Origin: a virus
Lineage: Duplodnaviria > Heunggongvirae > Uroviricota > Caudoviricetes
Reading direction: 5' to 3' (one strand)
IMG/VR virus record: IMGVR_UViG_2802429219_000007
DNA: 13,878 nucleotides
This document shows, piece after piece, positions 1-1,332 of the stretch. Position 1 is the stretch's first letter. Every line of letters begins with the position of its first letter. Below the pieces are notes generated by a model. The model was not told where the DNA came from and did not search any database. It saw only the letters and a program-made list of their open reading frames with translations. The position numbers were made by a program, and so were the translations under genes.

Positions 1-390
1 AGTGCTGACCAAAAACACAACGCCAATCAGTGATGATGAAATGGTGGAAAGCGGACAGCATCAGTAACGAAAGTATTTAGCGGGCATGAAAATGGCAAAT
101 AACGGTCAAACATCGTGGCGTTGACACCGAAGCCTGCTGAAATTCAAACTGCGGATCTAAGCGGTCATCGCAACGGTGAATCAGGTGGTTGCCGTATCGT
201 TGTGTTGTTGCGATGAACTTATTTAAAACTATAGTTGTTTTACCGTCAACAACAAAAGTTGTTTTATTGGTTGTTTTAGATATAACTGGTTGTATTTAGG
301 ATGGATTTATTTTGTGACTTGAATCGCATAGCGATAACTGAAGCGAGGTTATGGTGGTTTTTTTAACGGTGTGTGTGATGAGGGGAGGGC

Positions 391-1228: not shown

Positions 1229-1234
1229 AGTCCA

Positions 1235-1263
1235 AATGTACAACCAAGGTTTTATTCCATCAA
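1235..1263 (-). promoter_or_regulatory. Candidate pRM-like promoter for cI (-35 TTGATG, 17-bp spacer, -10 TACATT on minus strand); predicts leaderless cI mRNA
   Basis: Read on the minus strand: TTGATG-17 bp-TACATT, with the -10 ending 6 nt before the cI ATG and no Shine-Dalgarno. Operator-like repeat ACAACCAAGGTTTT (1240-1253) lies in the spacer. Confidence 0.4.
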
Positions 1264-1276
1264 ACGAAAATGGTTG

Positions 1277-1305
1277 TTGACTAAAAACAACCATGGTTTT
1301 AATAT
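1277..1305 (+). promoter_or_regulatory. Candidate pR-like promoter for cro (-35 TTGACT, 17-bp spacer, -10 TAATAT) overlapped by operator-like sites
   Basis: TTGACT (1277-1282), 17 bp, TAATAT (1300-1305); SD ACGGAGG precedes the cro ATG at 1333. Sites AAAATGGTTGTT (1267-1278) and ACAACCATGGTTTT (1287-1300, containing palindrome AACCATGGTT) overlap the -35 and the spacer/-10. Confidence 0.5.
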
Positions 1306-1332
1306 TGATTCAAATTAACCACGGAGGTTGTT

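Follow-up and report, generated by a model that had tools for sequence, protein, structure and literature searches.

The divergent repressor and cro genes at the left end of a 13,878-nucleotide stretch of viral DNA (IMG/VR record IMGVR_UViG_2802429219_000007, Caudoviricetes; the whole stretch is referred to as the window) are separated by an interval, positions 1229-1332, whose closest described counterparts are the switch regions of phage lambda, phage 434 and CP-933P of Escherichia coli O157:H7. In lambda, the gene of the repressor cI, which combines a helix-turn-helix (HTH) with an S24 domain, diverges from cro over 100 bp, and three 17-bp dyad operators (TATCACCGC...) follow one another from OR3 at distances of 23 and then 24 bp, with OR1 and OR2 lying over pR and OR3 over the -10 element of pRM (TAGATT), which ends 6 nt before the cI ATG without a Shine-Dalgarno sequence. 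Phage 434 has 14-bp operators (ACAAGAAAAACTGT, ACAAGATACATTGT and ACAAGAAAGTTTGT), in which the outer bases are conserved and the centre varies and which start 23 and 22 bp apart, and its annotated pRM start lies 18 nt upstream of the ATG, with a ribosome-binding site in the leader. CP-933P carries a YdaS/YdaT switch with a 97-bp intergenic region, and its repressor mRNA was found to be leaderless by 5′ RACE and N-terminal sequencing (PMC8630535), while a functional analogy of its YdaT to lambda CII has been shown (PMC8630535; PMC9986795). Judged from its sequence and that of its relatives, the interval 1229-1332 is very probably the right operator/promoter region of the switch between lysis and lysogeny in a lambdoid prophage. 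Its design is that of lambda, its recognition family that of 434 and its Cro and CII types those of CP-933P, and it represents an uncharacterised but very common immunity specificity that is related to 434.

As in lambda, the interval is flanked by divergent genes, cI on the minus strand (539-1228, 229 amino acids) and cro on the plus strand (1333-1563, 76 amino acids), at a distance of 104 bp. The cI protein has an N-terminal HTH related to the 434 repressor and a C-terminal, LexA-like S24 self-cleavage domain (Pfam HTH_3, 5e-13; Peptidase_S24, 1e-18), and Cro is an HTH protein of the YdaS family (Pfam YdaS_toxin, 4e-17; YdaS/P22_Cro). A preliminary description of the interval had noted three related sites, arranged like OR3, OR2 and OR1 of lambda and overlapping a candidate pRM and pR, at 1240-1253 (ACAACCAAGGTTTT), 1267-1278 (AAAATGGTTGTT) and 1287-1300 (ACAACCATGGTTTT). 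All three strings are present at these positions, and the overlap with the promoters follows from the positions of the hexamers, which have a lambda-like geometry. Comparison with relatives defines the repeat unit as a 14-bp dyad, A[C/A]AAC-N4-GTT[G/T]T, which agrees with the first and the third site as originally delimited, while the second had to be re-registered to the 14-mer 1264-1277 (ACGAAAATGGTTGT). Counted upstream from the A of the cI ATG, the distances to the centres of OR3 (1240-1253), OR2 (1264-1277) and OR1 (1287-1300) are thus 18.5, 42.5 and 65.5 bp, and the starts of the sites are 24 bp (OR3 to OR2) and 23 bp (OR2 to OR1) apart. The order of the two spacings is therefore reversed with respect to lambda, where the OR2 centre and the start of OR3 are 42 bp and 11 nt, respectively, from the ATG, but otherwise the geometry agrees to within 1 bp. 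The claim that the operators differ from those of lambda stands as well, and extends to 434 and 933W: in place of the 17-bp lambda sites, the window has 14-bp sites of the form ACAAC-N4-GTTKT.

The sites stand out from the rest of the window in two ways. The pattern AMAACNNNNGTTKT has four exact matches in the 13,878 bp when both strands are considered, compared with 0.14 expected, and none of 200 shuffled sequences reached four; all four matches fall into the right operator region and its counterpart on the left (OL). A symmetrised position matrix, which was trained solely on the sites of four other genomes, namely the phages of Klebsiella, Providencia, Salmonella and Erwinia, returned as its top five matches in the whole window OR1, OL1, OR3, OL2 and OR2, with scores of 20.4, 20.1, 18.4, 17.1 and 12.5, respectively, whereas the maximum score in shuffled sequences had a mean of 10.9 and a 95th percentile of 15.3. 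In OR2, the right half is perfect (GTTGT) and the left half is degenerate.

A strong promoter for cro, pR, was found on the plus strand at 1277-1305, with the -35 element TTGACT (1277-1282), a spacer of 17 nt and the -10 element TAATAT (1300-1305), and its predicted start is near 1312. It passes a consensus promoter scan with 9 of 12 positions and is conserved in relatives. Its -35 element overlaps the last base of OR2 and its -10 element begins at the last base of OR1, so that OR1 lies between the hexamers. On the minus strand, a candidate pRM was read from the sequence at 1235-1263, with the -35 element TTGATG (1263-1258), again a 17-nt spacer, and the -10 element TACATT (1240-1235), which overlaps the first base of OR3, while the -35 element (1258-1263) adjoins OR2. 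The -10 element is followed on this strand by TGGACT and then directly by the cI ATG at 1228. Downstream of pR, cro is preceded by the Shine-Dalgarno sequence GGAGG (1323-1327, plus strand; read from the sequence), the GAGG of which is invariant in seven genomes. A fourth operator over this ribosome-binding site was considered, as ACCACGGAGGTTGT at 1318-1331 has one mismatch to the operator and the equivalent stretch fits it perfectly in Providencia, Xenorhabdus, Morganella and one Klebsiella. It was rejected, since ACTAAGGAGGTTGT stands at the same spot in lambda, the operators of which are unrelated, the Stx1 group is without it, and two natural variants fall into the left half of ACCACGGAGGTTGT; the likeness probably reflects shared ancestry of the ribosome-binding site.

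About 1 kb to the left of OR, the mirror image of the OR stretch is found (inverted repeats I1 and I2), in which pL mirrors pR, comparable to the matching OL over pL in lambda. OL1 (225-238, AAAACTATAGTTGT) and OL2 (249-262, ACAACAAAAGTTGT) are both exact matches to the motif, and OL2 starts 24 bp after the start of OL1. The candidate pL (221-249, minus strand; read from the sequence) points to the left and consists of the -35 element TTGACG (249-244), which OL2 overlaps by one base (249), a 17-nt spacer and the -10 element TTAAAT (226-221). In 13 genomes AAAACnnnnGTTGT of OL1, OL2 and the pL -35 element (GTCAAC) are conserved. Beyond OL2, the window contains a T-rich block with operator-like half-sites (263-315), in which TGGTTGTTTT at 268-277 and TGGTTGTATTT at 287-297 are followed by GGATTTATTTTG, and a comparable block (ATTTGGTTGTTTTT ... 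GAATTTATTTTT) is present at this place in 12 other genomes with variable spacing. Possibly it is a half-site substitute for OL3, the site of another protein, or bent DNA upstream of pL.

Relatives were collected in two ways. By BLAST, the intergenic region could be aligned with those of Klebsiella phage ST101-KPC2phi6.1, Providencia phage PSTCR7lys and Salmonella phage UPF_BP1, and a protein search with the N-terminal domain of cI as query further gave Erwinia phage phiEt88 and the Stx1 phages PA28 and SH2026Stx1, which together with the E. coli locus make up a homology set of seven genomes. In all seven, OR3 and OR2 start 24 bp apart, OR2 and OR1 23-25 bp, and OL1 and OL2 24-25 bp, while OR3 starts 12-13 nt from the cI ATG and no Shine-Dalgarno sequence precedes cI. 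The seven-way alignment has invariant columns at the cI start, the TA..TT of the pRM -10 element, the operator half-sites and the GAGG and ATG of cro, whereas the centres of the sites, the spacers and the 6-7 nt between the -10 element and the ATG vary. The proteins differ in how far they have diverged: the N-terminal domain of cI is 57-74% identical across the seven genomes and Cro 59-82%, while identity in the C-terminal domain of cI ranges from 23 to 88%. Binding domain, operators and cro are thus passed on jointly as a module.

Second, one genome per bacterial species was scanned with an exact pattern of the OR3, OR2-flank and OR1 layout, which returned 16 loci, in Kosakonia, Serratia, Klebsiella (two), Enterobacter, Xenorhabdus, Morganella, Rosenbergiella (two), Rouxiella, Erwinia tracheiphila, Nevskia (four) and one contig labelled Chryseobacterium. 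All 16 are divergent cI/cro-type regions, and in each an ATG opening a cI-like protein is found 12-13 nt from OR3, a distance that the pattern did not impose. With 14 genomes from this search and the seven of the homology set, 21 genomes ranging from the Enterobacterales to Nevskia were available. OR2 takes the same position in all 21, and the three 14-mers, with starts 24 and then 23-25 bp apart, recur in every relative examined, in keeping with the arrangement first described for the window.

Natural variation within the E. coli type gives a similar picture. A search of viral contigs with the cI protein yielded copies with identical cI only, which were used for polymorphism and not for divergence. 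Among 80 such copies 18 of the 104 intergenic positions vary, and only one of the 18, position 1264 in a single copy, is among the 30 bases of the half-sites (hypergeometric P = 0.011). Variable positions are found in the centres of the sites (1247, 1294, 1295) and in the spacers. At two positions the window itself deviates from nearly all copies, as judged from 77-79 of the 80 viral contigs together with PhiR34_1 and the strains elppa4 and DS26-1. The A at 1304 is C in nearly all of them, so that the pR -10 element is TAATAT in the window, nearer to the consensus, and TAATCT in those copies; the G at 1295 in the centre of OR1, where most copies have A, creates the palindrome AACCATGGTT that the preliminary description had remarked on. 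Over the immunity region as a whole, the temperate phages PhiR34_1, PhiR5_1, PhiR47_2, PhiR26_1, Turner and IdasGreatGrand show an identity of 96-99%, and of 5426 complete E. coli genomes at least 1055, about a fifth, carry it. The database entries of phages with exactly this immunity region, among them PhiR34_1 and Turner, are complete phage genomes for which an E. coli host is named, and from this we infer that the switch works in these phages.

Several points weigh against reading the interval as the right half of a lambda-like switch. The matrix score of OR2, taken alone, is within the range of chance; its position and its conservation in relatives nevertheless suggest that OR2 is real, though intrinsically weak. 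OR2 of lambda is likewise a weak site. The candidate pRM matches the consensus at 8 of 12 positions and falls below the threshold of the scan, which is expected of an activator-dependent promoter, and comparison with relatives supports it. On the left side, none of 13 genomes has a full OL3 14-mer 23-25 bp beyond OL2, where isolated half-sites only were found, and in 14 of the 21 genomes the site spacing and the ACAAC at two half-sites were imposed by the search pattern, so that these features are not independent evidence. The operator strings, including the Stx1 variants, occur in none of the papers searched, and the names of related phages returned nothing relevant. Finally, cooperative binding, activation from OR2 and long-range looping are assumed by analogy with lambda and 434, and cooperativity remains an assumption for this repressor because cooperative binding is not universal among lambdoid repressors, as that of 933W shows (PMC3317979).

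The preliminary description had also pointed out that the pRM -10 element ends 6 nt before the cI ATG without a Shine-Dalgarno sequence and had proposed leaderless translation of cI. The sequence is as described, and the proposal gains support from the relatives: the distance of 12-13 nt between OR3 and the cI ATG is kept in 21 of 21 genomes although the intervening bases differ, the form TAnnnT of the -10 element and the gap of 6-7 nt to the ATG hold in all of them, and in none of the 21 was a Shine-Dalgarno sequence found before cI. The cI mRNA is thus probably leaderless, with its start at the A of the ATG at 1228. Alternatively, the operators and promoters could be real and cI nevertheless not leaderless, if the maintenance transcript starts a few bases or further upstream or if cI is expressed mainly from an upstream promoter of the establishment type, so that the leader would be short or long. 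The weakness of pRM would fit this alternative, as would phage 434, which is closest in repressor fold and has the leader and ribosome-binding site described above. We consider it quite unlikely, as the constant gap between -10 element and ATG persists despite sequence change, the layout is the same as that of the leaderless lambda pRM, and a switch of the YdaS/YdaT type has a repressor mRNA that is leaderless by experiment (PMC8630535). Leaderless translation from 1228 is therefore retained as the preferred reading, and the constancy of the distance between OR3 and the ATG suggests that it is a widespread conserved design and not a peculiarity of lambda.

The register of the operators themselves could be questioned, since both OR1 and OL1 of the window can be written as AAAAC-N7-GTTTT, in which case the true sites would have 17 bp, the length of the lambda operators, and OR1 would extend from 1284 to 1300. 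This is very unlikely: the three outer bases of the 17-mer vary in relatives (AAT, ATA, GAT), whereas OR1 and OR3 keep ACAAC without exception throughout the ACAAC group, the Stx1 phages shift to the symmetric ATAAC-N4-GTTAT, and 434, the relative in fold, uses 14-bp sites. The 14-bp register is thus kept below. Still less credible is a repressor that begins at an upstream ATG at 1294, with the repeats being coding sequence and the promoters located elsewhere. The frame is indeed open from this ATG to the stop at 539, and the GenBank record of PhiR34_1 annotates the corresponding protein of 251 amino acids (L001 5302-6057). However, in Klebsiella, Erwinia and PA28 the extended frame is interrupted by stop codons, located three codons before the MKT start. 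The extension is also without homology, its ATG would fall inside pR, within OR1, and RefSeq annotates the 229-residue form, the MKT start of which is conserved; the comparison thus supports the 229-residue start over the 251-residue annotation. An RNA hairpin or terminator in place of protein-binding DNA, suggested by a terminator scan that flags the inverted repeat 1270-1294 on both strands (fold -10.9 kcal/mol), can be dismissed with similar assurance, as its stem is formed by the facing half-sites of OR2 (right) and OR1 (left), both transcripts are predicted to begin downstream of it, the flanking bases of the stem are lost in Klebsiella and Salmonella, and no Rfam family matches it.

If 1229-1332 is the right operator region, a course of events can be drawn up by analogy with lambda, 434 and CP-933P. 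Dimers of the 229-residue repressor would fill OR1 and, cooperatively, the weak OR2, as well as OL1 and OL2, and thereby switch off pR and pL. The dimer on OR2, which would be centred at about -42, may touch RNA polymerase and stimulate pRM, the transcript of which would begin at the A of the cI ATG (1228) and be translated without a leader, until at high repressor concentration OR3 would also be filled and pRM turned off. Cro would compete for the same half-sites by means of a related helix (SQQAV in Cro, SQAAI in cI), probably with the opposite order of preference, and self-cleavage of the S24 domain stimulated by RecA would induce the prophage.

The closest solved structure to the DNA-binding domain of cI is that of the 434 repressor, which was matched by residues 5-68 in a phmmer search against PDB chains (1per_L, E 4.5e-9). 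Both systems also have 14-bp operators in which a variable centre separates conserved outer bases, with the outer ACAA in common, and in both a recognition-helix motif is shared by repressor and Cro. When the 434 pattern ACAA-N6-TTGT is applied to the window, OL2 is an exact match and the other four sites have one mismatch each; the window consensus (ACAAC-N4-GTTKT), unlike 434, has a fifth conserved base (C) in the half-site and tolerates A at position 2. In crystal structures of the 434 repressor bound to its operator, Gln28, Gln29 and Gln33 make base contacts, and residue 29 contacts base pair 2. The alignment shows that the equivalent of Gln28 is kept in the window, whereas those of Gln29 and Gln33 are Ala and Lys, so that cI belongs to the same fold family as the 434 repressor but differs in its determinants of specificity. 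Further differences are the spacing of the sites (24 and 23 bp), the ATG at the predicted transcript start instead of a leader, and a Cro of the YdaS type and not of the 434-Cro type.

Across the relatives, the recognition helices and the operators change together. The helices of cI and Cro are VSQAAI and VSQQAV in the E. coli phage and VSQPAI and VSQPAV in PA28, which fits with the two proteins reading the same half-sites, as in 434. In the SQAA group the half-sites are ACAAC or AAAAC, whereas the Stx1 phages PA28 and SH2026Stx1, with SQPA in the helices of both cI and Cro, have ATAAC...GTTAT at all five sites, and the Nevskia repressors, with QQT as in 434, have ACAAC only. Sorted by the residue that follows the conserved Gln, position 2 of the half-site is C in 18 of 18 cases with Gln (Nevskia), C in 102 and A in 35 of 138 cases with Ala, and T in 19 of 20 cases with Pro (Stx1 phages), where, for Gln and Ala, part of the C counts come from genomes found by pattern and were imposed by it. 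The Stx1 phages otherwise share the three-site layout, the 12-13 nt between OR3 and the ATG and the position of the pRM -10 element with the window, and their cI N-terminal domain and Cro are 57-58% and 59-65% identical to those encoded there. They differ in the half-site, in the helices (SQPA against SQAA in cI and SQQA in Cro) and in the distance of 25 bp from OR2 to OR1, and presumably hold a separate immunity specificity. The four Nevskia loci (L098, L103, L105 and L107), from outside the Enterobacterales, show the three-operator layout with ACAAC-N4-GTTGT at all sites, an ATG 13 nt from OR3 and the recognition helix KQQTIQALE, which is similar to the one in 434; in the 50 nt to the right of their OR1, no gene resembling cro and having a GGAGG ribosome-binding site was apparent.

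A wider interpretation, to which we assign a low likelihood, would make the E. coli switch the prototype of a large 434-related immunity family that reaches from the Enterobacterales to Nevskia, in which the equivalent of Gln29 in 434 sets operator position 2. If this were true, Gln would go with C, Ala with C or A and Pro with T, changing in step in repressor and Cro, and new immunity types could arise by a single coordinated step. Furthermore, as the operators of the window still fit the 434 pattern, OL2 exactly and the others with one mismatch, repressors of 434 immunity might bind them or vice versa, which would lead to partial cross-immunity between phages that are supposed to be heteroimmune. 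The relatives in any case form a natural set in which the half-site variants, three in number (ACAAC, ATAAC and ACAAC only), are each accompanied by a corresponding change in the recognition helix, and which could be used to study how the specificity of repressor and Cro co-evolves with the operators. The switch itself is of the textbook lambdoid kind and changes no concept; the gain consists in exact coordinates of operators, promoters and start codon for a common E. coli immunity type and for several recently isolated temperate phages, the current GenBank records of which carry no operator features and sometimes a wrong cI start.

Similarity to CP-933P concerns the YdaS-family Cro, the YdaT-family CII, the back-to-back pR and pRM and the matching pL operator (PMC8630535; PMC9986795), with the cII-like gene of the window being located at 1633-2172 on the plus strand (Pfam YdaT_toxin, 8e-30). 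By contrast, repressor and operators of CP-933P are not related to those of the window: the repressor PaaR2 lacks an S24 domain and is followed by a toxin-antitoxin pair, and its operators are four 18-bp repeats with the consensus GTTTAGTAA (PMC8630535). Neither a repressor of the PaaR2/RacR type nor repeats of the GTTTAGTAA type characterise the window, in which an S24 domain is joined to a 434-like HTH and the sites follow ACAAC-N4-GTTKT. A box for YdaT within the interval was considered and rejected, since the best match (1305-1322) has two mismatches and the count across the window is not above chance. When searched against the PDB by sequence, the YdaT-family protein of the window gave no match, including the solved YdaT structure, from which it is too divergent, and because of this distance the specificity of the YdaT box is not transferable. 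In the gap between the AraC-type and ninB-like genes, an exact match to TTGATT-N6-AATCAA, the inverted repeat bound by the YdaT of CP-933P, was observed (TTGATTTTGGGAAATCAA, 8222-8239); by a rough estimate about 0.001 exact matches are expected in such a window.

As a whole, the window represents the early region of a lambdoid E. coli prophage that resembles DLP12. To the right of the cII-like gene, the order is O, P, ren, an SMR transporter, a serine recombinase, a PEBP protein, an AraC-type regulator, a ninB-like gene, rusA and Q, and O, P and ren are of the lambda type, so that the lambda-type P gene named in the preliminary description is borne out by Pfam (Phage_lambda_P, with Phage_rep_O for O). 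The Cro and CII families, the position of OL at about 1 kb from OR without rexAB in between, the finding of only two full OL sites and the absence of an annotated N in intact relatives set the window apart from lambda; in these relatives, a gap of about 280 bp is found between pL and kil, where no N-like antiterminator is annotated (L089 1111-1913; L001 4508-5302). Rfam matched no RNA family in the window. Downstream of cI, the terminator scan identified an intrinsic terminator-like hairpin on the minus strand (400-417), which is followed by TTTTCTTTTG.

The leftmost 126 bases of the window (1-126, plus strand) are the terminal part of an IS21 element, the 3′ end of istB, which is 100% identical to the IS21 istB in phage fiAA91-ss. 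From 127 onwards the sequence is homologous to intact phages, and since transcription from pL is predicted to start only about 95 nt away, with this point downstream of it, the IS21 end has replaced the early-left genes and severed the operon, which comprises kil-gam-bet in relatives; this copy of the prophage is therefore probably defective. In the E. coli strain DS26-1, IS21 is located inside gam instead. At the other end, a lipocalin gene on the minus strand and a gene of the DUF1722/2-thiouracil desulfurase type (10427-12103) directly follow Q and occupy the position of the lambdoid lysis genes, which suggests cargo genes or a truncated late region.

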